64,000 nt of DNA from Candidatus Hydrogenedentota bacterium. GTDB taxonomy: Bacteria; Hydrogenedentota; Hydrogenedentia; Hydrogenedentales; JAGMZX01. Of the stretch, positions 2,410 to 61,785 are shown one piece after another; position 1 is the first letter of the stretch, and every line of letters begins with the position of its first letter. The position numbers were made by a program, and so were the translations under genes. Location: assembly GCA_029556545.1 (NCBI GenBank), contig JAKQEQ010000042.1, positions 18,729-82,728 on the forward strand, read 5' to 3'. The notes below the pieces were generated by a model. It saw nothing but the letters and a program-made list of their open reading frames with translations, was not told where the DNA came from and ran no database searches.

Positions 2410-2513
2410 CTTGATGTTCTCCGCTTTCCTTGCCCCTATTCTACCGCGTCCACCCGCTTCGTTACAGCGCGCCGGATGGACTTTCCCGCCCGCAAGGTTG
2501 TAGCCTCACCCCC

Positions 2514-3023
2514 ATGACGGACGTCGCCCTCCACATAGACGACCCGGCGGTCCGCATCACGATCAAGGCGATGCTCGAAGCCGCCGGCCACCGCGTCGTC
2601 ACGCATAACCCCGACGTCATCATCGCCGACGCGCCCGACGCCGCCGTCGAACTCGCGAAACACGCCCCGACGCTGACCCTCGCCGCCGCCGCCGACCTCC
2701 CCCGCGCCATCGACGCCATGCGCAACGGCGTCTTCGGCTACATCTTTCTCCCCCTTCAGCCCGGCGAGGCCGTCCTCATGGTCGACCGCGCCGTGAACGC
2801 GCCCCAGACCCGTCATTCCCGCGGAAGCGGGAATCCAGCAAACGCGCCTTCCGACACCATGCCCGATCCGACCGAAGACCTCACCCTCGCGACCCTCGAG
2901 CGCGATCATGTCCTGCGCGTGTTGCGCGCGCACAAATCCAATCACACTGCGGCCGCGCGCGCCCTCGGCATCGGACGCAACACGCTCTGGCGCAAACTGA
3001 AGCAGTATCAACGGGAGGTATGA
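2514..3023 (+). CDS. Fis-family HTH transcriptional regulator with degenerate receiver-like N-terminal domain
   Basis: C-terminal ...HTAAARALGIGRNTLWRKLKQY is the Fis/NtrC-type HTH. N-terminal ~110 aa resemble a CheY-like receiver (VIIADAPD). No sigma-54 AAA+ domain. Start chosen at MTDVALH (2514) inside longer ORF 2430..3023. Confidence 0.6.
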   Translation: MTDVALHIDDPAVRITIKAMLEAAGHRVVTHNPDVIIADAPDAAVELAKHAPTLTLAAAADLPRAIDAMRNGVFGYIFLPLQPGEAVLMVDRAVNAPQTRHSRGSGNPANAPSDTMPDPTEDLTLATLERDHVLRVLRAHKSNHTAAARALGIGRNTLWRKLKQYQREV

Positions 3024-3027
3024 ACTT

Positions 3028-46551: not shown

Positions 46552-46635
46552 CGCCCGACGGAGGGTTAGCGTAATTGGTAACGCACCGGTCTTGAAAACC
46601 GGCGCCTTCGGGCTTGGGGGTTCGAGTCCCCCACC
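46552..46635 (+). tRNA. tRNA-Ser (anticodon UGA)
   Basis: Hand-folded. Acceptor GGAGGGT/ACCCTCC, 3-bp D-stem (GCG/CGC), anticodon stem CCGGT/ACCGG with loop CUUGAAA (anticodon UGA), long variable arm GCC-TTCG-GGC, T-arm GGGGG-TTCGAGT-CCCCC, discriminator G, encoded CCA. Confidence 0.85.
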
Positions 46636-47219
46636 CTCCGCCATCACTGTAAACACGCACAATACCCCCGAAAACACAAGCGATTCCGCAAACAGCCCGC
46701 CGGTTCCGTAAGTGACCCCAAGCGCCCCCAAGCGTTCTCAAGAGTCGTTAATTCGTCCAAAATTCGTCCAGGTAAGTCGGCGCTTCACCCGTATCCTTTT
46801 CTCCGAGGACACGTCCGCGATCCTGTAATTCCACCAGCCGGTGGCCTTTCACCCTCATGATCGGAAATCCCGACCCGCCTCCGTACCCGCGGGCATGTCC
46901 GGCGGCCCGTCATCCGGCCCGCGGACCCGCACCCGAAACCCGCTCGCCGGAGGCGGCGATAGTCCGTTCTTCCCCTGCTCCCGGCACAGGCGTGTTCCGC
47001 CGATAAGTCCGTGTTTTCGGTCATACCTCGGGCGCGCTACCACATTTGTAAGTGCCTGTCAGGACACCCCTTAGAAAACCGACTTGACTTCTGGTATATC
47101 CCTGTGGTCAAGCGCACATCCCATGCGACTGCTTGACTCGGGCGCGGAGAACAGGTACGCTCTAGTGGATTTGCACCGTAACAAGGGGAGCGTTTTTCGC
47201 GAACTCGACCGGAGGGATT

Positions 47220-47552
47220 GTGCCTCGGATTTTCGACAATATCGGCGAGTCGCTTCTGCCCGCCTTGCAGAACACGCTTAAGCTGTCTCATCGGGCGGAT
47301 TTCTGTGTTGGATACTTCAATCTTCGCGGTTGGCGGCTCGTGGATTCCCTGACGACGGCACCCTGGGAAGTAGCCCGGCAGCCCGCCAATGAAGGGATGC
47401 ACCGGACGGACGAACTGGACGACGGCGTGCGCAACCCGCCGTCAGTTCTTTTCGGGGCTCTTGAGAGAATCACCTGCCGAAAACGCATTCCACAGTCTCA
47501 GGCGGCGACGGCGACGGCAAATCTTCCGCGCACGCTGCGGTCCCAGACGTAG
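47220..47552 (+). pseudogene. possible N-terminal remnant of a PLD-like nuclease/helicase-type defence gene
   Basis: [38 protein letters not shown] resembles N-termini of PLD-domain restriction/helicase proteins. Loses similarity after ~60 aa and runs antisense into the hsdR 3' end. Weak. Confidence 0.25.
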
Positions 47553-50500
47553 TCGTATACCCGCTTCACAAGCGTCTCGGTTTCCTCTTCGGAAAACGGC
47601 GGTTGGGGAAGGCTCTGCCAGAGCGAATCCCGAATTACTGTTTCCACCTGGGCTTGCGTGGCAGCATTCTTCGTCCAGTCGTGCATCGGTTCGAGCAGTT
47701 GGACAAGCGTACTCAACAGGGACCGGCTGGCCTGTTTGAGCCGCTCCCGGTCGGCTTTACTGATGTCCTCCCGGAACAGCATCTGGAACAGGGCGTACTC
47801 GGTCTCGGAAAGCCCTTCCTCCGCTGCTTTCCGCTGTTCCGCGTCGAGTTCCTGGGCGAGTGCAACCAGTCTCGTGAAAGTCTCCTCCACGGAGACTCGG
47901 TCCTTTTCCCGGTTGTAGTCGGCGATGATTTCCTGATACCGCTTGTAGTAATCCATCCGCGCCGGGTTGACGGCAAGCATGGCGGCCAGCTTCTCTTCCA
48001 CAAGTTGGCAGAGGTCCTGGACCGCCGTATGCTTCCGGGTCACTCGCGACGCGAATTCCTCCCGCAACCGCTCGAAATCAATCGTGCTCAGGTCCACCGC
48101 GAGACCCTCGGCGCGGTCGTCGCCGGGCTGCTGCGCGCGGATGGCCTCGTTGACGATTCGATGTATTTCCTTCAAGACCTCCGTGACGTCGGCCGTGTCG
48201 CGCCGCTCCAAGAGCTTCCTGTAAATGGTCTCGATATTGTCATGCCGCTCCACGTAGGCGTAGGCGCCAGGCTCCGTGACCAGGGCCTTGAACCGGGAAA
48301 ACACCTGGCGCGCGATGATCTCGAATTTCCGTCTTGCCGCATCTGACGTGTAAAGCACCTCGACGGCGTCGCGCAACGCCTCGATTCGGTCGAAGCCGCG
48401 CGCGCCGGCGAACCTGCCCGGATCAAACCCCAAGGCGCGGAGATGCCCCTCAGCGGCCTCGATGGCATCCACGAGCGCCGCGACAAGCGCCTCGATAGGC
48501 TCTGCGACGTCTTCCACTCCGCCCGCGCCGTCGTCGTCAACGCCCTCATCCCCGAGCGCGTACTGCGCAAGCGCCTCCCGCAGGCTTCGCAGCATGCCGT
48601 TGTAGTCCACGATAACGCCGCACTCCTTGCCGGGGTACACCCGGTTGGGGCGGGCAATCGCCTGCATCAGCGTATGCGCTTTCATCGGCTTATCGATGTA
48701 CAACGTCGAGAGACACTCGACGTCGAAGCCCGTCAGCCACATGGCGCACACAATGGCCACGCGGAATGGATGTTCCGGGTCCTTGAAGGCGTCCTCGACG
48801 CTGACGCGGCGCCCGTCCGGCGTCTCGAAGCCGAATTTCATGACGGTGCGATGGGGGATGATATCAACGCCCCACCGCTGGAAGTCCCGCACCTCGTTCT
48901 GCGCCTCGCTGATGATGAACTCGATGATCGCGCTTTCCATCCACGCGATTTGCCCGCGCAGGGCGGTTATCTTTCGCAGGACGGCCTCGCGCTCATCTTC
49001 ATCGGAACAAGCCGCGAACGCCGACTCCACCGCCGCCAATTCGCCCCGCAGCGCGGCTGTCTTCGCGTCCCAACGGGGCATGATCCGCTGATGCATGCGC
49101 CCGCACGTGATCTTGTCGATGCACACCATCATCGACTTGCCGCTTTCCCATCGAGCGGCGCAATGTTCGACAAAATCGTCCGCCAGCTTGTCCAGCCGGT
49201 CATCCGCGGTAATGACTTCGTAATCCTGCCCGAGCAACCGCTCGAGCAGTGCCGTCTGGTCCACATCGAGTTCGGCCTCTTCGATCTTTTCGGCGATCTG
49301 GTCGTTCAGGTCGAGCCGCGCGATGCCCAATTTTTCGCCCCGGCTCTCGTAGACCAGTTTGACCGTTGAATTGTCTTCCTCCGAACGCTTGAAATCGTAC
49401 CGGGAAACGTAATCGCCGAAAATGCGTCGTGTCAGTTCGTCATGTTTGAACAAGGGCGTGCCCGTGAACCCGATGAACGAAGCGTTCGGCAGGGCCAGCC
49501 GCATGTTCCGCGCGAATTTGCCCGCCTGCGTGCGGTGCGCCTCGTCCGAGATCACGATGATGTCGTCGCGCTCGCTGTAGGGCGCGGTCACGTCCTGATT
49601 GAACTTGTGGATGAGGCTGAAGATGAAGCCGTGGTTCTCGCCGAGCAGGCGACGCAGGTCGTCGCCCGAGGCCGCGCGCGGCGTCTGTTCATTCGCCACG
49701 CCGCAGCCCACAAAGGTGCGGAACAACTGCTCGTCGAGGTCTTCCCGGTCCGTCATCAACACGAACGTGAAGTTGCCCGGCACCACGCGCCGCACCTTCT
49801 CCGCGAAAAACACCATCGAATACGACTTGCCGCTCCCCTGCGTGTGCCAGAACACGCCCAGGCGCCCGAGGTCGGGGTGCGCGCGCTCGATCACTTGCAG
49901 CAGTTCCGTTTCTCTTCGCGGGAGCGCCCTGGCGGCCTCGCCTTCTTCGGCGGCCTTCTTCGGCACCGAACGCTGTATCTCATAGCGAAGCAGGCGCTCT
50001 TCCGGCGGATATTCGCGCTTCAAGTCCTCCTGACGCCGCACCGACGCTACCGCGCGGTTAACGCCCAGCACCTGATGGTTCCGCGCCATTATCTTCCGCG
50101 TGCCACCCGCGCGGCTGTCGTCGAACAACACAAAATTCTCGATCAGATCGAGCAGCCGATCCTTCGCAAGCATCCCCTCGACCAGCGCCTGCGCGTCCAG
50201 CCGCGCCGTGGACTGCTCGTCGTCCCGCTTCCACTCCGCGAAATGCTCCCACCGGCCCGTGATCGTGCCGTACCGCGCCCGGTCGCCGTTACTGACCACC
50301 AGAAATGCGTTGTGGTGGAACGCGTGCGCGATCGTGTATTCGTTCAGGTAATCGGTCAGGTTCTTGTCGAATCCCTCGCGGATGTTCTTGTAGACCGCCT
50401 TCAACTCGATGAAGACCAGCGGCAGCCCGTTTACGAAACACACCAGGTCCGCGCGTCGGTTGTAATGCGGCACGCGCACCCCCTGTATCTTCAACTCGCG

Positions 50501-50914
50501 CACCGCCAGAAAGCGGTTATTCGCCGGTGCCCGGAAGTCGATCACCCGCGCCCGTGCGTACTGCGTCTCGCCGGACCCGTCCCGCCACTCGACCGGCACC
50601 CCATTCCGGATATACCCGTGGAACTCCCGGTTGTGCTGCACCAGCGACCGCGAATAATCCACCCGCGTCAGTTTTTCGACCGCCTGCTCGACTGCTTCCC
50701 CCGGCAATTCCGGATTCAACCGGACCACCGCCGCCCGCAAGTCCCGCGTCAGCACCACCTCCCGCTCCGAACCCCGCCCCAGCAGCCCCGACGGCCCGAA
50801 CGTCTCCTCGTTCCACGCGAAACACGTCTCCCAACCCAGCGCTTCCTCAAGGTGCCGCGCCACGGTCTCCTGGACCAGCCGGTCTTCGCTGTTGATGTCC
50901 GTAATCAACGCCAA
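47498..50914 (-). CDS. hsdR: type I restriction enzyme R subunit
   Basis: 1138 aa. N-terminal nuclease region, SF2 helicase motifs (GSGKS Walker A, DEAHR motif II in ...[11 protein letters not shown]), C-terminal helical domain. Confidence 0.9.
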
Positions 50915-51000
50915 TCGGCCTTTCTAAAGGACACTCAGCCCAATTCTAAAGGACATTCGGTTTTGGGCGCCATTTATATAAAACATTGCGCTGCAATGCG

Positions 51001-51471
51001 TTACAGCAATTCATATCGTACAGGGTCTTTATAGACATCGGTTATTTGCAGCATTTTGGACTTTATGCCGTCTGTGGCCTCACGAGCCACGGGGACGGGA
51101 ATAAACATGCCCGCAGTCGCTTGACCCAAGCCGCCATTCCTTCGCTGGTCGTGTCCGCAATCATCGCCTATCCGCCTTTCTATTGGACACTCGACGCAAG
51201 TCAATTGGACAATGCTCCAATTGTGCCCAATATGCAAATCCTTTCCATTGCACAGTTTACGAGATTTGAAGCGATCCGGTCTATTGACCCATTCAGGTAT
51301 TTGTCCAATAGAACTCGGCCCACGACCTTCCAATTGCCTCGGGAAGACACCCGACTCAATTTGCCGATGCAGCAGCCCTTTCCACGCGGACTGCCACCTT
51401 GGCTCATCACGCAGATACTCTGCCAGCGTCGCTTGGGCCAGCCGGTCCTCGCTGTTGATGTCGGTGACCAT
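51001..51471 (-). pseudogene. duplicated 5' fragment of hsdR (insertion scar)
   Basis: [23 protein letters not shown] aligns to the hsdR N-terminus [27 protein letters not shown] ~88% identical over ~35 nt by hand alignment (accgacatcaacagcgaggaccggctggcccaag vs acggacatcaacagcgaagaccggctggtccagg). The rest of the ORF is unrelated. Confidence 0.5.
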
Positions 51472-51486
51472 GTGGATGTTATCGAT

Positions 51487-53970
51487 CTACCTCTTTTCGT
51501 GATTGATCGGAACGGGAATCGCGATACCAAGCTGCACCGCGACAGGAGTGTAAATGTCTATCTCCTGCTCCGGCGTCTCAATAGAGACTATCAGGGAGTA
51601 CCGGCAGCGGCTGTCCCATCTTCGAAGGTGCTGTCGCTCGCGCCACCAGCCGGTGGTTGGATACACGGCGACCAGATTCGAAGTCGCCAACTCGGCTGCC
51701 GTGCCGTGCCAAATATCAGAGTGAATAGAACCTACGTTCCGTGCCTCCCCGATAAACCACTTGCCGCCCGGACCCACAGTGCCAGGGTGGCCTTCGTCAT
51801 CTTCCCATGCCTGACGGTTTACTCTCCGGACGAACTCATCCTTCGATTCCTGCGGCCCATTCAACGCGAAGCGGAGCGCATGCGACGCGTACCGGTAGCG
51901 ATTGCCCCATCCTACTTCGCCTGGCCCAGGTTCAACAAAATAGGAGAGTGTCACCCTCATCTCGACGGCACTCTCACCTAGAGAGGATAAGACCTCCGTG
52001 GGCCATGGCAAGTTGTATAGATGCATTTCATTCGTTACATACCGGCTGTCGCGCCTATCAAACGGTTGCAGTTCTGCCTGGGAAATCAACGTCAGCGAAC
52101 TTGCCAAGGAATACAAAGCACGTGGCAGGCTGGGCACACCGTACCCGCAAATCCGCAGGAGGTTCGCGATCTCCTGCTTGCTTGGATTGAGCTGCGGCAA
52201 GAACTGTTGCAGCATTGTCTGCGTCCAGCGTGCCGAGTGCACAAGGAGTCCGCGTACTGTTTCAGGCCAAGCTTCGGGGTATGCGATGTGAATCTGAGCG
52301 GCCATCCAGGCCGCCTGTGCAGCGGCAGCGCTCGTGGCGCTGAACGGCAAGAACTGAGCCGTTGACGGATCAGAACTGGTCGAAAGTAATTTCAAGTCTT
52401 CGGTATCGAATATGGAATTATTTGGACCGGCCGCGACGTTGCCACCTTCCAGAAGTATGTCGGGCTTGATTGGCCAGCGCCGCCGATCCCATGCGGCAGA
52501 AGTCGTGCTGAACGGTGAAAGCCCACCAGCGGGCGCGACGGCACTCCAAGAGATCATTGTGGGGTCAGTAATGCGTACCTTTTCCGTATACGCACCTGCC
52601 GTCAGGGCATTCCACGCCTGAGCCGGATCATGTACCTCTTCGGTCAGATTTGCATGCGGATAGTTGCGCCAACTGTTGGACTCCACAACATTTCCCGCAC
52701 TTACTATGATTAACCGTTTGCGATCGTCTTCATAGCCCGACGCAATAGAGTCAAGTTCTGCGGACCACGAGGAGGGGCGGCCCCGGTCAAGGTCCTCCGG
52801 TGAGGTCACCGCAAGACAGACAATTCTCCGACGCTGCGGTGCCTGGATTTCCGCGAGACTGATTCCTTGTGCTGTCCGATGCCCCCAAAGCTCTTTCGGG
52901 TTCTGTGCTGGCGGCGGCGGGAGTATTTTCGAGGATTCGAGTCGATGTGATACCCGAATGGCCGAAGTACTATTGAGAATCTGCAACAAGTCGCCGTATG
53001 CGGCCGTTCCCGCCATCAGCGTTCCGTGTCCATCATTGTCATGGATGCCCCACTGGCGAATCACGGCGTGCATGTCGCTTGCGTCGAGCACCGGTTGGAG
53101 CAGCACATGTCCGCTGTTCACGCCGCTGTCAAGGATACAGACTGCGATGTCGCCGTCCCCCTCGAATCGTGTTCTTTGCAGCAAGTCTTGAACCAGTTGT
53201 ACTTGATCCCGGCTCTCCATCTCGATGTAGTACGTGGCAACCTGCTTTGCAACGCGAAATTCAACAATAATGTCGGATCGTTCAATAAGGCTGGCCAGTT
53301 GCCCGCCGGTCGCCTTGATCAGTAATACGGAACGCTCAGGGAACGTCAATTGTCCCTCGGCCTGAGTAACCTCCAGCGATTCGAGCAACGCCCTGAATTG
53401 GGCAATTTCATCGCCGGATTCCGTACCAAGCCAGACCTCGATCCAATCGGCCGAAGAACCGGGTATCTGGTCCCGCTCTTCCGGACGCCAGAACGATTCC
53501 AGTACTGCGCGGCGAATGTCGGAAATGCTCCGGACGAGTTTGTCATGCTTTGGCTTCTTACGTTCTTCAGGCGGAAGGGCGTAGCCCTCCAGAATCTTAA
53601 GGAAATGCCTGCGTTTCTCATTCGGCACATAGACTGTTGCCAATGTGCGCGCTCCGTCCGGTCCCGGAACCTCGCGTACGTTGCATAGGCGGATCCCTGA
53701 ACGAAGACGTTCCAGACTCGTTACTCTGAGGTCGTATCCGGGTTCCCCTTCAAACTCGATATATGCGCCGCGACGGGTTGTTTGCACCACGGCGCGCGCG
53801 GCGTCTACCTCGTGCCACGTGGCATTCAGTCGGGACAACAGAAGTTCGCTGTGGCTGGCTTGATCACGCACAGGGATATTTGCGTCGCCGCCCCCGCGTC
53901 GCGGGTTGGTGAATCCCTGTGATTCTTCACGGCCCGATATGTCGAGGTGTTGGTAGAGAGGCCCCCCCAT
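51487..53970 (-). CDS. ietS: S8 family (subtilisin-like) serine peptidase, 827 aa; candidate IetS-like defence protease
   Basis: Catalytic triad motifs present: CILDSGV (Asp), HGTLMAGTAA (His), FSATSAAAAQAA (Ser). ~290 aa N-terminal extension. ATG 6 nt downstream of the AAA-ATPase stop. Gene symbol rests on my recollection of the IetAS ATPase + S8 architecture and is tentative. Confidence 0.8.
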   Translation of the reverse strand: MGGPLYQHLDISGREESQGFTNPRRGGGDANIPVRDQASHSELLLSRLNATWHEVDAARAVVQTTRRGAYIEFEGEPGYDLRVTSLERLRSGIRLCNVREVPGPDGARTLATVYVPNEKRRHFLKILEGYALPPEERKKPKHDKLVRSISDIRRAVLESFWRPEERDQIPGSSADWIEVWLGTESGDEIAQFRALLESLEVTQAEGQLTFPERSVLLIKATGGQLASLIERSDIIVEFRVAKQVATYYIEMESRDQVQLVQDLLQRTRFEGDGDIAVCILDSGVNSGHVLLQPVLDASDMHAVIRQWGIHDNDGHGTLMAGTAAYGDLLQILNSTSAIRVSHRLESSKILPPPPAQNPKELWGHRTAQGISLAEIQAPQRRRIVCLAVTSPEDLDRGRPSSWSAELDSIASGYEDDRKRLIIVSAGNVVESNSWRNYPHANLTEEVHDPAQAWNALTAGAYTEKVRITDPTMISWSAVAPAGGLSPFSTTSAAWDRRRWPIKPDILLEGGNVAAGPNNSIFDTEDLKLLSTSSDPSTAQFLPFSATSAAAAQAAWMAAQIHIAYPEAWPETVRGLLVHSARWTQTMLQQFLPQLNPSKQEIANLLRICGYGVPSLPRALYSLASSLTLISQAELQPFDRRDSRYVTNEMHLYNLPWPTEVLSSLGESAVEMRVTLSYFVEPGPGEVGWGNRYRYASHALRFALNGPQESKDEFVRRVNRQAWEDDEGHPGTVGPGGKWFIGEARNVGSIHSDIWHGTAAELATSNLVAVYPTTGWWRERQHLRRWDSRCRYSLIVSIETPEQEIDIYTPVAVQLGIAIPVPINHEKR

Positions 53971-53976
53971 CCTGCT

Positions 53977-54945
53977 TTACCCCCTTATCCCTTGATGGAC
54001 ACTCCGCCGTTCTGCCAGACTTTGCCGCAGAGCGCCGGCCGTCACCTTCGTCTTGTCCGCAAGAATGGCCCGCTTGATGGCGTCGCGGCAGGCGGTGTCG
54101 ATTTCGGCATGGCTGAGACGCGCGCTCTGGCGCAGCACCGCCGCCCACGCGAATTTGGGCGCGAGGAAGGTGCCCAACACGTTCTGCATGAGCCGTTTGC
54201 GGTCGGCTTCTTCCGGCAGTGCGTAGTACAACACATCGTCGAAACGGCGGTACAGCGCGCGGTCGAGCAGCTTCGGGCTGTTCGTCGCCGCCACGATCAG
54301 ACTGTCGGAACTGTCCTGCTCGATAAACTGTAGAAAGGCATTCAGCACCCGGCGCATCTCCGCCACATCGTTTTCCAGCATGCGTTCGCCACCGATGGCG
54401 TCGAACTCGTCGAAAAGGTAGACCCCCGGCTCCTGCTGAATCAGCTCGAAGATCTGGCGCAGCTTCGCGCTCGTCTCACCCATGAACTTCGTCACCAGCT
54501 TGTCCACCTGGACGGTGTGCAGCGGCAACCTTAGTTCATGCGCCAGCACCCGCGCCGTCATCGTCTTGCCCGTGCCCGGCGGCCCGACAAGCAGCACCTT
54601 GCGCCGGTGCGCCAGCCCGTGCAATTTCAGCTTCTGCTGTTGACGGTACTCATGAACGATGCGCTGCACCCGGTCGGACAACGACTCCGGAATCACCAGC
54701 GCAGAGCGCGGCGTGTCCGGTTCCTCGGAAAACACCAGCCCGCGCAAGTCCACCGGAAACTTCAATATCCGAGGGCCGCGCTCCCGCCGTGCCTTATCCA
54801 CGAGTTCCCGGATGTCAAGGGCCAGCGCCCCGTGGCCCTGTTGGGCCTCATGCGCCGCTACTTGCAGCGCAATCGTGTAAAACCGCTCCGCGTCGTCACT
54901 TAGGTGCGACCGAATCAGCGCCTTCAGTTGTTCCGCAGTGGCCAT
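53977..54945 (-). CDS. ietA: AAA+ ATPase (classic AAA, SpoVK/CbbX-like); candidate IetA-like partner of the S8 peptidase
   Basis: 322 aa. Walker A GPPGTGKT, Walker B LFDEFDA, sensor/Arg-finger region ATNSPKLLDRALYRRF. Sits between hsdS and the S8 gene. Gene symbol tentative. Confidence 0.8.
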   Translation of the reverse strand: MATAEQLKALIRSHLSDDAERFYTIALQVAAHEAQQGHGALALDIRELVDKARRERGPRILKFPVDLRGLVFSEEPDTPRSALVIPESLSDRVQRIVHEYRQQQKLKLHGLAHRRKVLLVGPPGTGKTMTARVLAHELRLPLHTVQVDKLVTKFMGETSAKLRQIFELIQQEPGVYLFDEFDAIGGERMLENDVAEMRRVLNAFLQFIEQDSSDSLIVAATNSPKLLDRALYRRFDDVLYYALPEEADRKRLMQNVLGTFLAPKFAWAAVLRQSARLSHAEIDTACRDAIKRAILADKTKVTAGALRQSLAERRSVHQGIRG

Positions 54946-55055
54946 CGATAATCCCCGGCTGTGTCCCGCTTGATGTTACCTTCTTTCCGATTCTACATCA
55001 ACAATTCGCAACCTGAACCCCGATGTTCAAGCGGACCGGTGGTCCTGGCTTCTTG

Positions 55056-56261
55056 TCATACCGCAATCTCCCCGTTCATCAGGCGCGGCAGGAGTAGATC
55101 GCGCGCCGCGCGGAGACGTTCATTGTGCTGCTTGAGCACACGAATTTGAGCAAAGTGGAGGCTGGCCTGCTCGGAAAACTCCAGAGTGAAGCTGTGCGCG
55201 GGAATCACCACCTCGAATTCGCGAAACTTCCCTCGACTGACTTCGGGGTACGTGCTCCCGCTGCCCATGGAGCGGATTTCTTCAACCCGGTCGGAAAGAT
55301 GAAACACGAGGTACGGGGTCAAAACGGGTTCGTGGGGCACAACAGAAATGAAACCCTGGTTGGTGCAGACTTCGCGGCCCGCTATGCCAAAGAAGCCGAC
55401 GGAGGCGCGACTCGTCATGAGAATGGCATGGGGTTTGACAAGCTTTGCCGAACTATTCTGTAACCCCGCCTCTGTAATCTTCTTCTCGGCATCCAGAAGA
55501 ACGAAATGCTTATTCCTCGTTACATCAGTTGGTGTCACCCACGTGATTTCGCCGTCGTCCCAATAAGCAGCATTCGCAGTTGAAGGCGTGCCGCCCCCAA
55601 CGCAATCGGCCACATCACCTATTCGTTTCCGTTCCCAGCCTTGGGGGAGGCCGTTCGTGATGGGGGTGTGTTCGTGGCCGGGGAAGCGGAGGCGGACAAA
55701 CCATTCGCGGTAGAGTTGGCGGGCCGATTCTTCCAACAACGCCATCCGCCGCCGGTTGTTCTCGATCAGGTCGTCATACGCCGACAAGATGTCTGCAATG
55801 CGTTGCTGCACTTCGAGCGAAGGAAAGCTTATCTCGACTCCTGCGAGCTTTTCTCGTGGAAGATGCTTGATTGTTGCGCCGGTTAACAGAGGCGTAAAGC
55901 CCCCGAGCCTTCCCTTATGAAGCAGTGAATAGAACAGGAACCGGTAATCGAGGCAATCATGAGGACGAATGCGGTGAAGGGCTTTTTGGTACATTACTCC
56001 GGGCATAGGCTCTTTCCAAACTGCGCAACGTCCGGGTTCGCCGCCTTCACACAGGAGAATGTCGCCGCACTTCAACCCGTATCGCTCCATTTCATCTTGC
56101 TCGAACCGCATCTCGCGAAGGTTCTCAAGATCGAACTCGCCCCAGCGAACGTTGATATTTGCAAGATACGGAAGGGCTTCTCCCCTATTTTTCCTTTCGT
56201 CCAACATTTTACCCAAGCTAAAATCCGCAATCTCGGCCAAGGGCTTAGTCATCCACTTCAT
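55056..56261 (-). CDS. hsdS: type I restriction-modification system specificity subunit
   Basis: 401 aa. Two target-recognition domains separated by a conserved central coiled region (LIENNRRRMALLEE...). Start overlaps the hsdM stop (ATGA). Confidence 0.85.
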   Translation of the reverse strand: MKWMTKPLAEIADFSLGKMLDERKNRGEALPYLANINVRWGEFDLENLREMRFEQDEMERYGLKCGDILLCEGGEPGRCAVWKEPMPGVMYQKALHRIRPHDCLDYRFLFYSLLHKGRLGGFTPLLTGATIKHLPREKLAGVEISFPSLEVQQRIADILSAYDDLIENNRRRMALLEESARQLYREWFVRLRFPGHEHTPITNGLPQGWERKRIGDVADCVGGGTPSTANAAYWDDGEITWVTPTDVTRNKHFVLLDAEKKITEAGLQNSSAKLVKPHAILMTSRASVGFFGIAGREVCTNQGFISVVPHEPVLTPYLVFHLSDRVEEIRSMGSGSTYPEVSRGKFREFEVVIPAHSFTLEFSEQASLHFAQIRVLKQHNERLRAARDLLLPRLMNGEIAV

Positions 56262-58378
56262 ATCCCCAACTCCTGGAAGTTGGCCTGGATTTTGGCGGCG
56301 AGATCGGCGGCTTCGGTGTTGAGGTCGGCGAGTTCGACGTGGATGCCGCGGAGGGTCTCCTCGAAGTCGAAGTCTTCGTCGTCTTCCTGGGGCGCGACGC
56401 CGACGTAGCGGCCGGGGGTGAGGCTCCAGTCGGCGGCGGCGATTTCGGCGCGGGTGACGAGCCGGACCAGACCGGGCACGGCTTCGAGGTCGGCCTTCGG
56501 GAAGCGGTCTTCGAGCCAGGCGACCTGCCGGTGGAAGTAGACGGTGCGCTTGAGTTGTTCGACGGCGTCCTTGCGCGTGTCGTCGAGTTGTTTGACGAGG
56601 CGGTTGGCGGCGCGGCGGTCGTAGCTGGATTCGAGGCCGGTTTCCACGACGAGGTTCGCGGCGTGGTCCGCCACGCGCGCGGTAAGCTTGAAGACGAGGT
56701 CCACCTGTTTGACGAGGCCGCGCAGGCGCTCCGCGACAGGCTCGAAGGCATGGCGCGCGGCATGCTGCGCGGCGTTCGATTTGGGCGGCTTCTTCCCGTA
56801 CTTCTTCACGAACGCGGCGCAGTCTTTGATCGCGCGCTTCCGGTCGGCGATATAGGCCGTCACGGCGTCAGACGATTCAAGGAGCGCGTCCAGGAACGGC
56901 TGTTTCGTCTCCGCGGGCACGTCCCAAACGTTATTGACGCTTATCGCCAGCGCGGCCAGTCGCATTCGGAGTTCGCCCAGCGCCTTCTCGAATGTGTCGA
57001 TCGCGCCGGGCACGGCGGCGCACTCTTCGCAGACGCGGCGGAAGTAGTCGGTCACGAGCGCGAGGAAGCGGTCGCGTTGGCCGCGGTAGAGCCAGACGAT
57101 GGCGGCGAGGTTGTGCAGTTGTTCGGGCGAGAAATCGTTGATCTTGCGGTTGACCTTGCGGAACACATTGCGCGCGTCGATCATGAGGACCGTATCGCGC
57201 CGTTCGGCGGGCTTGCCGCGGTCGAAGAACCAGAGTTCGCAGGGGACGGTGCGCGTATAGAAGAAATTCGAGCGGATCGAGACCATGACGTCCACGTCGC
57301 CGGTCTCGACCATCTTGCGGCGGACTTCCTTCTCGCCGTGGCCCGCGCTCGAAGCCTGAGACGACATGACGCAGCCGGCGCGGCCTTTCTCGTTCAGGTA
57401 GCTCCAGAAATACGAGAGCCAGAGGTAGTTGCCGTTCGAGACCTTCTTGGCCTTGTTCACGCCGGGCAGGCCGAAGGGCAGGCGCGGATCGCCCTGGATG
57501 CGCTCGGCATCGACCAGATCGACGTTGAACGGGGGATTGGCCATGACGAAGTCGCATTTGCCGTAGAGGCTGTGTTCGTCCTGGTAGTAGGTGATGGCCT
57601 CGGCAATCTGGCCTTCGAGGCCGTGTACGGCGAGGTTCATCTTGGCGATGCGGATGGTGTCGCGGTTCTTTTCCTGGCCGTAGAACACGACTTTCTTCGC
57701 CGTGTCGCCGCCGGCCTGCTCGATGAAGTGGCTCGATTGCACGAACATGCCGCCGGAGCCGCAGGCGGGGTCGAAAACGGTCCCGTGGTCCGGCTCGATG
57801 ACGTTGACGATGGTCTGCACGATCGAGGCGGGCGTGAAGAACTCGCCGTTGTCGTGGGCCTTCTGGATCGAGAACTTGGCGAGAAAGTATTCGTAGATGC
57901 GGCCGAACACGTCGCCCGTGGCGTTCTTGATGCGCTCGGTGTTGAAGGTGCGCATCAGGTTTTCGAGCACGGCGGGCTCGAAAATGCCGTAGTCCTTCGG
58001 GAGCACGTTCTTGAGCGGATCGAAGGCCGCCTCGATGGCCTCCATCGCGCCGGTCACCAGTTTGGGCAGGCCCGACTGGTCAGAGGTGGCCTTTTTCATG
58101 ATCGTGTCGTAATGCGCCGCCTCCGGCAGCCAAAGCGCGCGGCGCGAGATGTAGTCGGCGGGCTGCACCTTGCGTTTGGGCATCTTGCCGCTCGCCTGGT
58201 CCGCCTGAATCTGGCGCGTGGCGGCGTCGAACCGGTTGGCGGCGTGGCGCAGGAAGATAACGCCCAGCACGGGCATGAAATAGTCGCTCGAGGTGAGCTT
58301 CGAATTCGCGCGGAGGTTGTCCGCCGCCTCCCACAAGTCGGCTTCCAGCTTGTCGATGTCTCTGAAAACGTCCGGCAT
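56258..58378 (-). CDS. hsdM: type I restriction-modification system methyltransferase subunit (long form)
   Basis: 706 aa from MPDVFRDID. N6-adenine MTase motifs (VFDPACGSGGMF motif I, NPPF motif IV) and N-terminal HsdM_N region. ORF opens at 58432. Confidence 0.9.
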   Translation of the reverse strand: MPDVFRDIDKLEADLWEAADNLRANSKLTSSDYFMPVLGVIFLRHAANRFDAATRQIQADQASGKMPKRKVQPADYISRRALWLPEAAHYDTIMKKATSDQSGLPKLVTGAMEAIEAAFDPLKNVLPKDYGIFEPAVLENLMRTFNTERIKNATGDVFGRIYEYFLAKFSIQKAHDNGEFFTPASIVQTIVNVIEPDHGTVFDPACGSGGMFVQSSHFIEQAGGDTAKKVVFYGQEKNRDTIRIAKMNLAVHGLEGQIAEAITYYQDEHSLYGKCDFVMANPPFNVDLVDAERIQGDPRLPFGLPGVNKAKKVSNGNYLWLSYFWSYLNEKGRAGCVMSSQASSAGHGEKEVRRKMVETGDVDVMVSIRSNFFYTRTVPCELWFFDRGKPAERRDTVLMIDARNVFRKVNRKINDFSPEQLHNLAAIVWLYRGQRDRFLALVTDYFRRVCEECAAVPGAIDTFEKALGELRMRLAALAISVNNVWDVPAETKQPFLDALLESSDAVTAYIADRKRAIKDCAAFVKKYGKKPPKSNAAQHAARHAFEPVAERLRGLVKQVDLVFKLTARVADHAANLVVETGLESSYDRRAANRLVKQLDDTRKDAVEQLKRTVYFHRQVAWLEDRFPKADLEAVPGLVRLVTRAEIAAADWSLTPGRYVGVAPQEDDEDFDFEETLRGIHVELADLNTEAADLAAKIQANFQELGI

Positions 58379-58559
58379 GCAATCTCCCCTCGGGCGGGCA
58401 CGCATCCTGGTCCAACCTGACCACGCAGGCATTCCGCCTGCCCGACACTTTCCATGGAAACCGGCTTCATTCTACTGCGCAACCGGCGACGGCGCAAGGG
58501 GCGCCCGCGGGCAACTTTCGACGCACGGCCTTTGTTACAGACAGCCCTCGCCGGGCACG

Positions 58560-60011
58560 CTACCGGCGCCCGTACGAACTCATGGTGACGGGCGAACTGG
58601 CGGTTGCCGTCTCTCTGGACATGCTGCGGGAAAGAGCGGCAAGCACCGCGGCTTCTTCCCATCGTCTCCTATGCTCGATAACGCGCGCCAGCGTTCTTAT
58701 CGCCGGCCTGACGTTCCTCCGGGTACGGCCATCCTTTCCTGGCCCATCACCGCCCTTCAGTCGGTCGAGGCACTTCTCAGCCTCGGCAAGTCTTCCCAAC
58801 TCCACCAGGATCAGGCCGCGGAGAAAGGTCGCATCGGGGGATTGGTCAAGGGGCGCATGCAGTTCACTGATCTGATCAAGGGCGCGCGCGTAGCTGCCGT
58901 CATGATACATCTTCTCCGTATTCACGAGGATCATGTAGTAGACAAAGCCAAGCAAGGCCCGCGCCCGCACTTGAGAATCAGGCATTGTGATCTGTTCCAT
59001 GTTGGCCAGCATCACATACCGCGAATATCGCTCCTGGTCCTTCCTTTGAAGCGCCAATCGGGCATGCAGCACCCGGGCCATGGCACAGTAGGGCCAAGTC
59101 CGCAGCGCTTTCCGGCACTTTGCCTCCGCGCGCGCAATCTTGAAAACTCGCGCGCGCTGAAGCAAACGACAACCGCGCAAGGCCAGGCGCTCCGCCTTCC
59201 TGTCCAGCGATGCCTCCAGATTGCCGGGGGCATCAAACGGCAGCGGTCCGAGGCCAAAGGAACTCATGATTTCTCGCGTGGCGTTGCGACTGAATTCCGC
59301 CCCCGCGGCAGGCGTTTCCAATGCTTTTCCAGCCAGTCTTTCCGCGTCGGCCATACCATGGCGTTTCAGGGCGTCAACTGCGCGTTGCGCCGCGCGGTGG
59401 TGTCCTGAAATTCCGTGGAGTGATTGTAGGTAGGTCTTCCATGCCGCAATTGCCGATTCGTTATTGCCGGCGCGTTCGTGAGCCATGGCTATAAGATAGC
59501 GGAGTTGGGGGGCTTTCGGTTTCAAGTCATTGGCAGCCCGTTCCGCAACCGCAATGGCTTCGTTCACGTTACCCAGCGCCAGCAGGATGGCGGCGTGGTC
59601 GTGATGAAAGTAGGCGTGTTTCGGGATACGCGCCAGCGCTCTCTTACAGGGAGCCAGGGCTTCGTTGGGTTTGCCAAGGCGCAATTGGCACCAGGCGATG
59701 TTGTTCCATGCTTCGCCGGAGTTCGGGTCTTTCGACAACTGAAGCTGCAAACACGCGATGGCTTTTTCATACTCGCCGAAGCGGATGAGTTCGAACCCGA
59801 GATAGCCAAGGTACTCAGCATCGTCCGGCGGCCGTTCAAGCGCCGCGAGCGTTATGTCTCTCGCGGTCTTGTAGAGGGGGTTTTCGACATCAATCGCCCC
59901 GTCAATGTAGATGTAATCCAGATCCTCAGGCCCCATCATTACGAGGAGCCGCGCCATGTCCACAAGTTCTTTCGGGGAGAGCGCTTCTGTCCCTTTGGTT
60001 CCTATCACCAC
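58560..60011 (-). CDS. TPR repeat protein
   Basis: 483 aa, multiple TPR-like repeats (GEAWNNIAWCQLRLGKPNEA..., YLIAMAHERAGNNESA...). In the lower-GC island. Confidence 0.6.
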   Translation of the reverse strand: MVIGTKGTEALSPKELVDMARLLVMMGPEDLDYIYIDGAIDVENPLYKTARDITLAALERPPDDAEYLGYLGFELIRFGEYEKAIACLQLQLSKDPNSGEAWNNIAWCQLRLGKPNEALAPCKRALARIPKHAYFHHDHAAILLALGNVNEAIAVAERAANDLKPKAPQLRYLIAMAHERAGNNESAIAAWKTYLQSLHGISGHHRAAQRAVDALKRHGMADAERLAGKALETPAAGAEFSRNATREIMSSFGLGPLPFDAPGNLEASLDRKAERLALRGCRLLQRARVFKIARAEAKCRKALRTWPYCAMARVLHARLALQRKDQERYSRYVMLANMEQITMPDSQVRARALLGFVYYMILVNTEKMYHDGSYARALDQISELHAPLDQSPDATFLRGLILVELGRLAEAEKCLDRLKGGDGPGKDGRTRRNVRPAIRTLARVIEHRRRWEEAAVLAALSRSMSRETATASSPVTMSSYGRR

Positions 60012-60075
60012 GCCCCTTTCCGTTTTGCCCTGTTGTCGAGGGCAAATTCACCCTAGCGCTGCCGCACGCATGTTT

Positions 60076-61785
60076 TCAACGCGACGGCGCGCGGTCTCCA
60101 AACAATTTGCGGAGCGTGTCTCGTTTTTCCATCGCGGCGGCGTCTTCCGGGTCAATCGCTACCGCGCGTTCATAGCATCGCAGCGCCTCCCCCGCATTGC
60201 CCAAGCCGCACAAGGCATCGCCAAGGTTGACGCAGGCGTCGCAGAAGAACGGGTCCACGTCCAGCGCCTTCCGATAGCACTCGATGGCCTTCTTGAAATC
60301 CCGTTGCTGCTGGTGCAAGCCGCCCAGGGTGTTCCACGCGTCGCGGAACGTGTCGTCCAATTGGATGGCCTTCTGGGCCGCGGCGAAGGCGTCGGGCGTT
60401 CGGCCGAGGCGCTTGTGCGCGCAAGCGAGATTGTTCCAGGCGAGCGCGTTCTCCGGTTCACGGGTGAGGGCAGTTTTCAGGTCCTCGACCGCCTCCCGGG
60501 GTTGATTCAGGTTCAAATGACACAGGCTCCGGTTGATTCTTGCCGCCACATAGCCGGCATCCATTTCGACGGCTTGGTTCGCGATTTCGAGGGCCTCCTC
60601 GTAACGTTGCAGGTAGCACAGACTCGCGGCCCAGTCCTTCAGCCTTTCAGCGTTCACGGGAAGCGGCGGCGTGTCGGGAACGTCGATACCCGATTCGGCG
60701 GCGTGCTGCTCCAGCTCTCGTCGCAATACCGCGAATTCCTGATACCGGTCTTCGGGCGATTTTTGGAGGCATCGCCCCACAACAGGCCCGAGCGGATCGG
60801 GCAAGGGGGGAGGCGGCATGTCCCGGTGCAGGTTCGCGTAATCCTGTAACGTGTTTCCCTGAAACGGCAGGACGCCGCACGTCAGCATCTGGAACAAGAC
60901 CACTCCAAAGGAGTAGATATCACTGCGAACATCGGCATGCTTTGCGTCGCCAAACTGCTCGGGCGACATCCACGGCGGCGAACCGCAACACGAACCTTCC
61001 TTGGTGGCGATGACCGACAGGCTGCTTGGTCTTGGGACCGCCCCTGCGGCGGGCTCGGGCGGAACATCGCCATCAAGTGATTTCGCAAGTCCGAAATCCG
61101 TTATTTTCACGCGTCCCTCCGCGTCAATCATGATGTTGTCGGGCTTGACATCTCGGTGCACATCAATTCCGTGCGCGAGGGCAAATTCCATACCGCGGCA
61201 GAACTGAATACTCCACGGAATCACGCGAACCAGGGGCAACTGTTCCCCTTGAAGGTAATGCGTAAGGGTGTTACGGCCTTCCGGGTCCGGCCCGATGAAT
61301 TCCAGCACAAGACACAACCGCCCATCGGGTTTTCGGACCGTGTGGGCTCGGACGATGTGTGGATGGTGCCCCATACCGATCCAGAGTTCCGCTTCGCGCC
61401 GGAACACCGCCGCCACCCGTTTGTTCCATACCGACGGGTCCTGAAACGTCTTGATCGCGCGCTGCTGCCGGTCCCACCGGTCCCAGACCAGGTATACCAC
61501 TCCCATGCCCGATTTTCCCGGCCCACCGAAGACATTCAGGACTTCGTACCGGCCCCCTATCAGTGCGCCGGGCGCATACCGCGCGGGAGGAAGCAACGTT
61601 GCCGCGCCGTCGGACACCGCGGACGAGTCTTCTGAAGACTGCGCCCAGAACTGTGAGTCGCGCTGAACAACCCGCTCGGCTGAAGATGCCATGGTCGATG
61701 CGACCACAGTATTCGTGGCTTGCGGCGGCGCCTTGTGTCCGGCGTGGGCGCGTCGTCGGAACATGTCTGCAAGTCGCTTCAGCAT
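60076..61785 (-). CDS. serine/threonine protein kinase with C-terminal TPR repeats
   Basis: Hanks kinase motifs: catalytic loop HRDVKPDNIMID, DFG (ITDFGLAK), APE-like region, then 4-5 TPR repeats. Confidence 0.8.
   Translation of the reverse strand: MLKRLADMFRRRAHAGHKAPPQATNTVVASTMASSAERVVQRDSQFWAQSSEDSSAVSDGAATLLPPARYAPGALIGGRYEVLNVFGGPGKSGMGVVYLVWDRWDRQQRAIKTFQDPSVWNKRVAAVFRREAELWIGMGHHPHIVRAHTVRKPDGRLCLVLEFIGPDPEGRNTLTHYLQGEQLPLVRVIPWSIQFCRGMEFALAHGIDVHRDVKPDNIMIDAEGRVKITDFGLAKSLDGDVPPEPAAGAVPRPSSLSVIATKEGSCCGSPPWMSPEQFGDAKHADVRSDIYSFGVVLFQMLTCGVLPFQGNTLQDYANLHRDMPPPPLPDPLGPVVGRCLQKSPEDRYQEFAVLRRELEQHAAESGIDVPDTPPLPVNAERLKDWAASLCYLQRYEEALEIANQAVEMDAGYVAARINRSLCHLNLNQPREAVEDLKTALTREPENALAWNNLACAHKRLGRTPDAFAAAQKAIQLDDTFRDAWNTLGGLHQQQRDFKKAIECYRKALDVDPFFCDACVNLGDALCGLGNAGEALRCYERAVAIDPEDAAAMEKRDTLRKLFGDRAPSR

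Follow-up and report, generated by a model that had tools for sequence, protein, structure and literature searches.

An IetAS-family AAA+ ATPase and S8 protease pair at the hsdS/hsdR junction of a Type I restriction-modification operon: a probable autonomous defense module

In the window analyzed here (the whole 64-kb stretch of 64,000 nucleotides from an uncultured high-GC bacterium), the genes of a Type I restriction-modification (R-M) system are interrupted by a gene for an AAA+ ATPase and a gene for a subtilisin-like protease. This arrangement raises two questions: what the pair is, and whether it works together with the R-M system or is only carried in the operon. IetAS systems, which combine such an ATPase and such a protease, were reportedly described among anti-phage systems by Gao et al. 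in 2020. The original prediction took the pair to be either a diverged member of that family or a new ATPase-controlled protease effector.

All the genes of the locus lie on the minus strand in the order hsdM-hsdS-ietA-ietS-hsdR. The gene ietA (53977..54945) encodes a classical-clade AAA+ ATPase of 322 residues, the putative antitoxin/regulator partner, and ietS (51487..53970) encodes an S8 (subtilisin-like) serine peptidase of 827 residues, the putative toxin/effector partner. The predicted position of the two genes between hsdS and hsdR was confirmed by the ORFs, Pfam, and PADLOC, with the strand assigned as minus. The stop codon of ietA (TAA, 53977-53979) is followed by a gap of 6 nt (agcagg) and the ATG of ietS at 53970, and a Shine-Dalgarno-like run, AAGGGGG, overlaps the 3′ end of ietA ahead of ietS. 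The reading of the pair as a two-gene unit holds: ietA is located directly upstream of ietS in every related locus with upstream DNA (72 informative loci).

The surrounding Type I R-M system is intact, all three subunits having their catalytic motifs. The methyltransferase gene hsdM (56258..58432, minus strand; Pfam; PADLOC MTase_I, E = 8e-242) encodes the motifs DPACGSG and NPPF and overlaps hsdS by 4 nt. The specificity subunit encoded by hsdS (55056..56261, minus strand; Pfam; PADLOC Specificity_I, E = 2e-75) has two target-recognition domains. The restriction subunit gene hsdR (47498..50914, minus strand; PADLOC REase_I, E = 1.5e-158) starts with TTG, and its product is canonical, with the HSDR_N, T1R_D3, and T1RH-like_C domains (Pfam) and the nuclease D..ELK, GSGKS, and DEAH motifs.

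The junctions on both sides of the pair should be noted. The 110-nt intergenic region between hsdS and ietA (54946..55055, minus strand) contains a ribosome-binding site, GGGGA, located 7-11 nt upstream of the ATG, and has room for a putative promoter of its own. A scan of this region for sigma-70-type promoters gave no match, and no DNA-level conservation of the region was found among the relatives. On the other side, ietS and hsdR are not closely joined: a mosaic spacer of 572 nt (50915..51486, minus strand) lies between them. This spacer contains two stubs of the 5′ end of hsdR, both diverged, one at 51422-51471, beginning 15 nt past the ietS stop codon, and the other, with a leader, at 51140-51211, as well as four copies of TGTCCWWTAGAA. 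We read the spacer as a recombination scar. The GC content of the locus is lower than that of the rest of the window, with atypical values for the individual genes, and a tRNA-Ser gene adjoins the locus. These two features together suggest a horizontal origin.

Both proteins were compared with family models. The PADLOC IetA model PDLC02196 matches the ATPase over residues 2-315 of 322 (E = 1.3e-72), and three more IetA models match it with E values from 7e-63 to 2e-35, while the next family, TRIP13, reaches merely 1e-17. The PADLOC IetS model PDLC02198 matches the protease over residues 274-811 (E = 4.3e-35), leaving residues 1-273 uncovered; four more IetS models also match, and a generic subtilase model gives merely 4e-5. 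Neither protein matches PrrC or RloC (ABC ATPase and anticodon nuclease) in the PADLOC search. IetA is 51% identical to IetA of the Agrobacterium plasmid pTi Gle001 over residues 1-315, and IetS is 41% identical to its counterpart over residues 8-814, the N- and C-terminal regions included. The pTi Gle001 pair itself shows 95.1% DNA identity to positions 97873-101373 of pTiC58, the locus where IetAS was defined. The scores against the NCBIfam equivalogs are below the cut-offs for both IteA_antiphage (NF042959; 214 bits against 510) and IteS_antiphage (NF042956; 42 bits against 900), which places the pair in the broad IetAS family but in another subfamily than the one modeled by NCBI. Judging from these sequence comparisons, we have here a genuine, if rather ordinary, representative of the known IetAS family. 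The profile-HMM search against PADLOC that the original prediction had proposed thus agrees with the IetAS identity suggested there, in the form of a diverged family member, whereas the alternative of a new protease effector is not supported.

IetA begins with a conserved helical region (aa 1-45), which is followed by a variable linker (aa 46-100) and then by the AAA module (aa 105-310), within which Pfam AAA (PF00004) matches residues 117-240 (E = 4e-31). The Walker motifs are intact, as had been expected: Walker A (GPPGTGKT) and Walker B (LFDEFD), together with pore-loop-1 (KFMGE), N221, and the RRFD arginine fingers, are invariant in the homologs from 70 loci. The best PDB sequence matches of IetA are AFG2/SPATA5, NVL, and the D2 domain of p97/Cdc48. 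In sequence, IetA is nearest to AAA proteins that thread their substrates (p97/Cdc48, AFG2, PAN, and FtsH), and it keeps their pore loop. This would suit a housekeeping ATP-dependent protease that takes no part in conflict with phages or mobile elements, the unfoldase IetA delivering substrates to IetS in regulated proteolysis or in quality control, and some free-standing pairs indeed lie among housekeeping genes. We regard this explanation as very improbable, since the distribution of the pair is patchy and mobile, with transposon, toxin-antitoxin (TA), and defense neighborhoods and plasmid carriage, the homologs act as toxin and antitoxin, and R-M operons repeatedly harbor the pair.

IetS is a cytoplasmic protein with three parts. 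The S8 catalytic domain (aa 274-611; 52138..53151, minus strand) corresponds to Pfam Peptidase_S8 (PF00082; E = 9e-60, residues 274-611). The Asp/His/Ser triad, already recognized as intact in the 827-residue protein, consists of D281, H315, and S547, and these residues and the oxyanion residue N427 are invariant across 61 homologs. The position of the start codon should be noted. The gene call of the source metagenome starts ietS late to give 718 residues, whereas the homologs favor 827 residues, and this full length is conserved among thousands of homologs.

The N-terminal region of IetS (aa 1-270; 53161..53970, minus strand) is family-specific and forms alpha/beta units in the predicted structure. 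It had been regarded as an extension of about 290 residues that could be a sensor. The region does exist, with a length of about 270 residues, but it is neither peculiar to this protein nor newly acquired. It is conserved family-wide and is seen solely at the N-terminus of IetS-like proteases, indicating that it is a family domain and not a newly acquired sensor. One of its modeled alpha/beta units suggests a resemblance to subtilisin propeptide/I9 inhibitors. In the model, this propeptide-like unit is probably formed by aa 175-243, with the order beta-alpha-beta-beta-alpha-beta, directly before the catalytic domain. The C-terminal beta-rich domain (aa 612-827; 51490..52137, minus strand), delineated by invariant columns and the predicted structure, is the best conserved part outside the active site, with the motifs TLSYF[IV]EP and GS.HSD.W, and its model has pLDDT values mostly of 80-95. 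The IetS model aligns over 345 residues with KP-43, a subtilase that has a beta domain at its C-terminus. This hints only weakly at a P-domain-like module in IetS, and the fold affinity of the C-terminal domain is uncertain.

The functions of homologs are informative about the possible role of the pair. The founding member, IetAS of pTiC58, is cited as having been discovered as a TA system for plasmid stability (Yamamoto et al. 2009, cited in PMC8562856 and PMC13069673). The protease IetS acts as the toxin and the ATPase IetA as its antitoxin, and no ietA mutant can be obtained (PMC13069673). The experimentally validated SgiAT of Salmonella Genomic Island 1 (SGI1), with 50% and 36% identity to IetA and IetS of pTiC58, stabilizes the island (PMC5006074), and the AAA/S8 pair TA132/133 of Mycoplasma mycoides is a functional TA system (PMC8562856). 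The ietAS system of Bacillus cereus works through abortive infection, and expression of yosG of SPbeta makes it toxic (bioRxiv 10.1101/2022.08.27.505566). Free-standing IetAS defends alone in Escherichia coli and Bacillus subtilis (PMC13069673; bioRxiv 10.1101/2022.08.21.504612; bioRxiv 10.1101/2022.08.27.505566). The toxin and antitoxin roles, phage defense, abortive infection, and triggering by a phage protein are assigned to the present pair by analogy with this literature, and its function in the uncultured host organism is one that we infer.

The discovery of IetAS through plasmid stability and the stabilization of SGI1 by SgiAT would also fit a module that primarily serves addiction (post-segregational killing) and stabilizes the acquired R-M island, with phage defense incidental or absent. 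Homologs are found in 484 plasmid records, mostly of conjugative plasmids. In the nearest relative (L087; 94% identity in IetA and 86% in IetS), ietA and ietS are kept, while hsdM, hsdS, and hsdR around them are reduced to fragments. The adjoining tRNA-Ser and the atypical GC content of the present locus point in the same direction. However, homologous systems do protect against phages, and Type I R-M is addictive in its own right, so that a second stabilizer is less needed. A primarily addictive role is thus rather unlikely, though addiction and defense are not mutually exclusive and the difference is one of emphasis more than a true alternative.

Relatives of the pair occur in at least 597 species-representative genomes of many phyla. 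The five-gene order hsdM-hsdS-ietA-ietS-hsdR is found in 19 of the 72 informative loci (26%), which come from many phyla and represent several families of Type I systems, the HsdM/HsdR families of the embedded loci sharing just 25-30% identity with each other. In the remaining 53 loci, the pair is not embedded in Type I R-M. The junctions of embedded loci are very short: hsdS and ietA are separated by 7-49 nt in eight loci, and ietS and hsdR by 54 nt or less in most. In addition, the identities of IetS and HsdR co-vary (Mantel r 0.73, p 2e-4). Around free-standing pairs, the 109 immediate neighbors represent 130 Pfam families, a heterogeneous set that includes transposases, other TA genes, CBASS SMODS, and AbiEii as well as housekeeping genes. 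The other recurring neighbors are solely of ATP-dependent restriction type, namely two more hsdS genes, two Type III-like methylase genes, and a SNF2 helicase gene directly upstream of the pair in one locus (L016), the sole one with the order SNF2-ietA-ietS. In the literature, E. coli is described as having ietAS co-localized with Type III R-M (bioRxiv 10.1101/2022.08.21.504612), and in ietHAS the SNF2 helicase is essential and antitoxin-like (PMC13069673).

These observations allow the pair to be seen as a guard of the restriction system, like PrrC in EcoprrI or IetH in ietHAS, in which IetAS is functionally linked with the Type I complex or with its SF2 translocase HsdR. IetS would then be released, and infection aborted, if R-M is inhibited by an anti-restriction protein of the phage (Ocr/ArdA/Stp-like) or if the complex stalls. 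The pair occupies the slot of prrC, co-oriented between hsdS and hsdR, and the recurrence of this order with distant Type I families, the short junctions, the co-variation with HsdR, and the restriction-type neighbors and partners described above are all in favor of such a guard. The 26% embedding, tight spacing, and co-divergence with hsdR could also reflect a functional link with R-M and not an incidental one. More generally, IetAS might have a functional affinity for ATP-dependent restriction machines with SF2 translocases (Type I HsdR, Type III Res/Mod, and SNF2 IetH), the R-M system or HsdR belonging, in the embedded form, to the circuit that senses the trigger or restrains the protease; we hold this general affinity to be improbable.

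The distribution and phylogeny of the pair are against such a coupling. Three quarters of the relatives are unembedded, and close ones (66-86% IetS identity) are free-standing or located in decayed R-M; three near relatives (L006, L086, and L088) have no hsdR after ietS. Near-exclusive occurrence inside Type I R-M, as for PrrC, is not observed for IetAS. In the IetA+IetS tree, embedded and free-standing pairs are interleaved with no embedded clade or sequence type, and Fitch parsimony requires 14 changes for 15 embedded leaves, equal to the shuffled-label null. Free-standing IetAS defends alone in two hosts, and at the present locus, the scarred spacer with its own leader separates hsdR from ietS. 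Furthermore, many unrelated systems are found inserted at the hsdS/hsdR junction, which is permissive in general (bioRxiv 10.1101/2024.01.29.577857). The statement in the original prediction that Type I R-M loci host other immune genes in this slot agrees with that work (Payne et al.) and with TgvAB (PMC11411939). A guard of the restriction system is accordingly an unlikely explanation for the pair.

The interleaved tree and the decayed R-M genes around the pair in the nearest relative argue for an autonomous, addictive, abortive-infection-type module that hitch-hikes in a permissive R-M slot, and against an obligate PrrC-like partnership. We therefore consider it likely that this IetAS is a TA-like defense module of abortive-infection type, carried as an autonomous passenger at the hsdMS/hsdR junction of an intact Type I R-M system. 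In such a module, IetS, a cytoplasmic subtilisin-like protease, would be toxic when unrestrained, as its homologs are. IetA, a classical AAA+ protein with an intact substrate-threading pore loop, would restrain IetS in an ATP-dependent manner, most plausibly, though this is conjecture, by acting on the propeptide-like region at the IetS N-terminus that is specific to the family. A phage-derived cue, which is a phage protein in homologs, would break the restraint, and the freed IetS would cut cellular and/or phage proteins to stop growth. The module is co-oriented and probably co-transcribed with the R-M genes. IetAS would add a second, mechanistically different layer of defense to Type I R-M, and its addictive TA nature would also stabilize the island.

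Taken alone, the locus is one more IetAS, from an uncultured high-GC bacterium, of a family already cataloged by PADLOC and DefenseFinder. The comparative picture adds the invariant ietA-ietS order, an 827-residue architecture with a propeptide-like N-terminal region conserved across phyla, and the location of about a quarter of the clade at the hsdS/hsdR junction of Type I systems of several families. Embedded and free-standing pairs do not differ in kind, which supports the view of embedding as largely hitch-hiking in permissive operon junctions. If the R-M system were part of the circuit, the pair would be a protease-based analog of the PrrC-EcoprrI guard and would give a first handle on IetAS triggering, with anti-restriction proteins or a blocked translocase unleashing IetS.

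Comparison with known systems places the pair as follows. PrrC in EcoprrI (hsdM-hsdS-prrC-hsdR) is a latent toxic effector co-oriented in the identical slot beside Type I (bioRxiv 10.1101/2024.01.29.577857). However, PrrC is an ABC-type ATPase fused to an RNase, unrelated to the AAA+ ATPase and protease of IetAS, and it is almost exclusively embedded (bioRxiv 10.1101/2024.01.29.577857), unlike IetAS with about 26% of its clade. TgvAB, a GmrSD-like Type IV system in the Type I R-M of Vibrio cholerae VPI-2, is likewise a two-gene cassette between Type I genes and works alone when cloned out (PMC11411939), but it is a modification-dependent nuclease with complementary DNA targeting and is not TA-like or abortive. 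The ietHAS system (Liu-DS4; PMC13069673) combines the IetAS core with an SF2/SNF2 translocase, a combination also seen in L016, whereas the present locus has no dedicated ietH, its sole SF2 protein being the canonical HsdR downstream past the 572-nt spacer.

The anti-phage IetAS systems of E. coli ECOR52 and B. cereus m1293 belong to the same PADLOC family and have an ATPase and a catalytically required S8 protease. The present pair is far below the NCBIfam equivalog cut-offs of their subfamily, and it is embedded in Type I R-M of an uncultured high-GC bacterium, whereas those tested are stand-alone constructs. IetAS of pTiC58 has the same construction as the present pair, an ATPase of about 325 residues followed after a few nucleotides by an S8 peptidase of about 830 residues. 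That founding pair is located on a conjugative Ti plasmid beside unrelated genes (LysR and DUF6088), outside any R-M operon, and was studied for plasmid stability and incompatibility. SgiAT (S026/S025) and TA132/133 are chromosomal-island systems in other genomic contexts, and their role was described as maintaining the island or as a kill switch, not as defense. Their toxicity and neutralization are experimental (PMC5006074, PMC8562856). They share with the present pair the combination of an AAA-ATPase antitoxin and a subtilisin-like protease toxin, and SgiAT (50%/36%) and the present pair (51%/41% to the near-identical pTi Gle001 pair) lie at a similar distance from IetAS of pTiC58.

The ATPase and the S8 protease of the original prediction were both found as open reading frames at exactly the coordinates it had given. 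ietA (53977..54945, minus strand) encodes 322 aa with a Pfam AAA domain (PF00004, E 4e-31), and ietS (51487..53970, minus strand) encodes 827 aa with a Peptidase_S8 domain (PF00082, E 9e-60) at residues 274-611. As was also predicted, the pair lies between hsdS and hsdR of a Type I R-M system on the same strand: hsdM (56258..58432, minus) overlaps hsdS (55056..56261, minus) by 4 nt, and hsdR (47498..50914, minus) follows ietS. Since all three genes show the expected domains, strong PADLOC Type I matches, and intact catalytic motifs, the R-M system looks functional and the pair is truly embedded in it. The ietS-hsdR junction is not tight, as the two genes are 572 nt apart.

The junction within the pair should be noted. 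After the ietA stop codon (TAA, 53977-53979) come 6 bases (agcagg) and then the ietS ATG at 53970. This short gap, together with a purine-rich AAGGGGG run overlapping the end of ietA ahead of ietS, makes translational coupling plausible. In the gene call of the source metagenome (JGI 3300010356, Ga0116237_10000878), ietS begins 109 codons late and encodes 718 aa, leaving an apparent gap of 330 nt after ietA (window 53644-53970, or 9674-10000 in L004, the source contig of the window). The full 827-aa frame is kept in homologues, against this call.

The predicted assignment to IetAS is borne out by the PADLOC profile HMMs and by full-length likeness to the pair on Ti plasmids. The IetA models match the ATPase nearly end to end (E 1.3e-72) and the IetS models match protease residues 274-811 (E 4.3e-35), and the families next in rank are weaker by many orders of magnitude. 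Scores against the NCBIfam anti-phage equivalog models are far below the cut-off (214/510 and 42/900 bits), indicating that the pair belongs to the broad IetAS family but to a subfamily other than the one modelled by NCBI.

Seventy IetA sequences of related loci all share, without variation, the Walker A (GPPGTGKT) and Walker B (LFDEFD) motifs, pore loop 1 (K-F-M-G-E-T-S-A-K), an EMRRVLN segment, the sensor-1 Asn, and the RRFD arginine-finger motif. The proteins of solved structure that IetA most resembles in sequence are AFG2/SPATA5, NVL, and the p97/Cdc48 D2 ring (E 1e-45 to 1e-40). These motifs and relatives identify IetA as a classical-clade AAA+ protein. Judging from established knowledge of the clade, it would have the hallmarks of a hexameric, substrate-threading machine.

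In IetS, the catalytic residues Asp281, His315, and Ser547 and the oxyanion residue Asn427 are invariant in 61 homologues (39-69% identity). The N-terminal part of about 290 aa had been regarded as an extension; however, homologues align over 99-100% of the query, so these approximately 270 residues are no add-on. A HMMER search with residues 1-272 against 1.8 billion representative proteins matched 1265 clusters, in which the region is always N-terminal, in proteins of approximately 820-850 aa or fragments. A sensor domain shuffled among other architectures was rejected, since the region occurs only at the N-terminus of such proteins. No signal-peptide-like N-terminus is found in IetS, indicating that the protease is cytoplasmic. 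A PDB sequence search with IetS gave no match at E 0.01 or better, and no solved IetAS structure was found. The first structure model, from a shallow alignment of 25 sequences, was poor (pLDDT 53.7), and its Foldseek likeness to tandem ACT/ferredoxin-like domains was set aside because the match was weak (E ~4e-3) and the model poor. In the model used here (61 sequences, pLDDT 76.4), the C-terminal 215 residues are well predicted as a highly conserved β-rich domain of uncertain fold affinity.

A scan of GTDB with one genome per species found at least 597 relatives, and the best 80 loci were compared. They span Hydrogenedentota, Desulfobacterota, Verrucomicrobiota, Planctomycetota, Bacteroidota, Spirochaetota, Cyanobacteria, Firmicutes, and others, and wherever a locus includes upstream DNA, IetS is directly preceded by an IetA homologue. 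Cultured carriers include Desulfosarcina cetonica JCM 12296 (L071) and Synechococcus sp. CS-1329 (L015). The patchy, mobile distribution makes a housekeeping role of the protease unlikely. The order hsdM-hsdS-ietA-ietS-hsdR is found in 19 of the 72 loci with enough flanking sequence (26%), a rate that holds for the clade of the query's nearest relatives. The junctions of the embedded loci are tight, with hsdS-ietA gaps as short as 7-49 nt and ietS-hsdR gaps mostly of 54 nt or less. Their Type I systems are highly diverse: HsdM is 25% to 62% identical to that of the window, and pairwise HsdR identity falls to approximately 30%. IetS and HsdR identities co-vary among these loci (Mantel r 0.73, p 2e-4). 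Clear swaps are also found. The IetS of the embedded locus L029 is nearest to that of L027 (69%), but its HsdR is nearest to that of L009 (75%), and L036 and L071 are 80% identical in IetS but only 54% in HsdR.

The slot between hsdS and hsdR, the repeated use of this slot in different Type I families, the short junctions, and the co-divergence of IetS with HsdR are what would be expected if embedded IetAS were a PrrC-like guard coupled to the R-M complex. This is the most interesting alternative, though we consider it improbable, since most relatives are free-standing and cloned stand-alone IetAS systems are active independently. Nor is there an embedded clade. Embedded and free-standing loci are fully interleaved in the neighbour-joining tree of IetA+IetS. 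For the 15 leaves that are embedded, Fitch parsimony counts 14 changes of state, with 13-15 across 30 bootstraps, no different from the mean of 13.6 obtained when labels are shuffled. A distinct embedded subtype was rejected on these grounds. The immediate neighbours of free-standing pairs vary widely, with 130 Pfam families among 109 proteins, and the only recurring classes are of restriction type: two further hsdS, two Type III-like methylases, and a helicase-methylase arrangement in L016, a Kiritimatiellae MAG. In favour of the guard, SF2 translocases are involved in all the other recurring neighbours as well as in the ietHAS variant known from the literature. In two loci (L074 6578-12493 and L022 7391-12445), hsdM-like and hsdS-like genes precede ietAS, with no hsdR detected within 10 kb downstream; these could be incomplete or decayed embeddings, or else orphan M-S units.

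The closest relative found, L087, has IetA and IetS 94% and 86% identical to those of the window. It lies at 508-4270 of a 5088-nt contig assembled from reads (Logan SRR8731049). There, hsdM is cut to a fragment (aa 12-103) that meets the ietA upstream region almost directly, hsdS is gone, ietA is intact, ietS has lost aa 38-164 in frame, and only the first approximately 90 codons of hsdR remain, directly after the ietS stop. The R-M system thus appears to have decayed while ietAS persisted, though an assembly artefact is possible in a contig so short. The hsdR start right behind ietS indicates that embedding with a tight ietS-hsdR junction goes back to the common ancestor with the window locus. 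In three other near relatives (L006, L086, and L088; IetS 66-74%), no hsdR follows ietS.

In the 572-nt spacer of the window (50915-51486, minus), the hsdR 5′ end is present as two diverged stubs, and a 12-mer is present in four copies. The first stub (51422-51471, minus) begins 15 nt behind the ietS stop; it shares 60% identity with the N-terminal ends of HsdR in related embedded loci and only 46% with the window's own HsdR. The second stub (51140-51211, minus) takes in the hsdR leader, at 78% over 72 nt. The spacer looks like a later mosaic, a recombination scar at the hsdR junction, and such scarring also argues against coupling of IetAS to the R-M complex. The 12-mer, TGTCCWWTAGAA, is found four times in the window, always within this spacer (expected 0.13); two of the four copies sit just upstream of the real hsdR start and may be an operator. 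A family-wide operator was rejected, as the 12-mer is absent from all fetched loci except L004. A spacer ORF (51001..51471, 156 aa) was considered as a third cassette gene and rejected; it has no Pfam or PADLOC match, begins with the hsdR stub, and is probably a pseudo-ORF. In a σ70 promoter and terminator scan, the hsdS-ietA gap contained no promoter that was convincing and hits did not exceed those expected from shuffled sequence, though σ70 may not be the type of this host. The 150 nt upstream of ietA, aligned in 17 relatives, show no conserved operator or promoter.

GC drops across the R-M/ietAS region, and GC3 is uneven within the operon: 0.61 in ietS and 0.63 in hsdS versus 0.79 in ietA, 0.82 in hsdR, and 0.88 in hsdM. 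The low values suggest a different recombination history of the variable partners, and ietS and hsdS may have been exchanged in from lower-GC donors. A tRNA-Ser gene (anticodon TGA, 46560-46643, plus strand) is found past the hsdR stop, at a distance of 855 nt. When an att-like repeat of its 3′ end was looked for, only the tRNA itself was matched, and no integrase was found in the window, so that neither feature marks the borders of the island. Two small ORFs between the tRNA and hsdR (47037..47402 and 47220..47552) have no Pfam or PADLOC match. Directly upstream of hsdM (58560-61785, minus) are genes for a TPR protein (483 aa) and a Ser/Thr kinase-TPR protein (569 aa), whose kinase domain matches the PADLOC PD-T4-6 and mad6 models (E 1e-51 to 1e-54). 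This could be generic kinase similarity, or the genes could be further defence genes of the same island.

Work on homologues shows IetS as the toxin and IetA as the antitoxin; defence depends on the active site of the protease, an ietA mutant could not be constructed, and how phage are countered "remains unknown" as of 2026 (PMC13069673). A Mycoplasma AAA/S8 pair is a working toxin-antitoxin system (PMC8562856), and the system of B. cereus works through abortive infection, turning toxic once SPβ YosG is expressed (bioRxiv 10.1101/2022.08.27.505566). Taken with the anatomy of IetA and IetS, these reports best support a four-part model. IetA, as an ATP-driven threading machine, would hold IetS in check continuously, probably through the propeptide-like part of its N-terminal region. 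A phage product would titrate or block IetA, or change IetS. The released cytoplasmic subtilase would then destroy essential proteins and abort the infection. The module would be autonomous, its position reflecting insertion at a permissive hsdMS/hsdR unit boundary and co-transfer with the R-M genes, with the added benefit of an abortive system layered behind a restriction system. A reading of the pair as an addiction module first agrees with everything observed, is compatible with this autonomous model, and differs from it mainly in emphasis. The recurrent embedding in Type I R-M, which no discussion of ietAS in the literature searched describes, is a useful comparative note and fits the general "embedded defence" phenomenon.

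Among known systems, the SgiAT pair of SGI1, which has been validated by experiment, gives a sense of scale: it shares 50% and 36% identity with IetA and IetS of the plasmid pTiC58, respectively (PMC5006074). In L016 (971-9267), ietA is preceded at 61 nt by an SNF2 helicase gene (995 aa) and ietS is followed at 48 nt by a Type III-like N6/N4 methylase gene. This order recalls ietHAS and is ietHAS/DISARM-like, here outside Pseudomonadota; such a methylase also lies downstream of ietS in L031 (4433-6094). A tblastn search of plasmids matched 484 records, including Agrobacterium/Rhizobium Ti and Ri plasmids with 41% identity over IetS residues 8-814. In one of these plasmids (L085), the genes for an ATP-binding protein and an S8 peptidase are 3 nt apart, and the ATPase is 51% identical to the window IetA over its full length. 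The L085 pair is nearly identical (95.1% at the DNA level) to positions 97873-101373 of pTiC58, the plasmid on which IetAS was defined.
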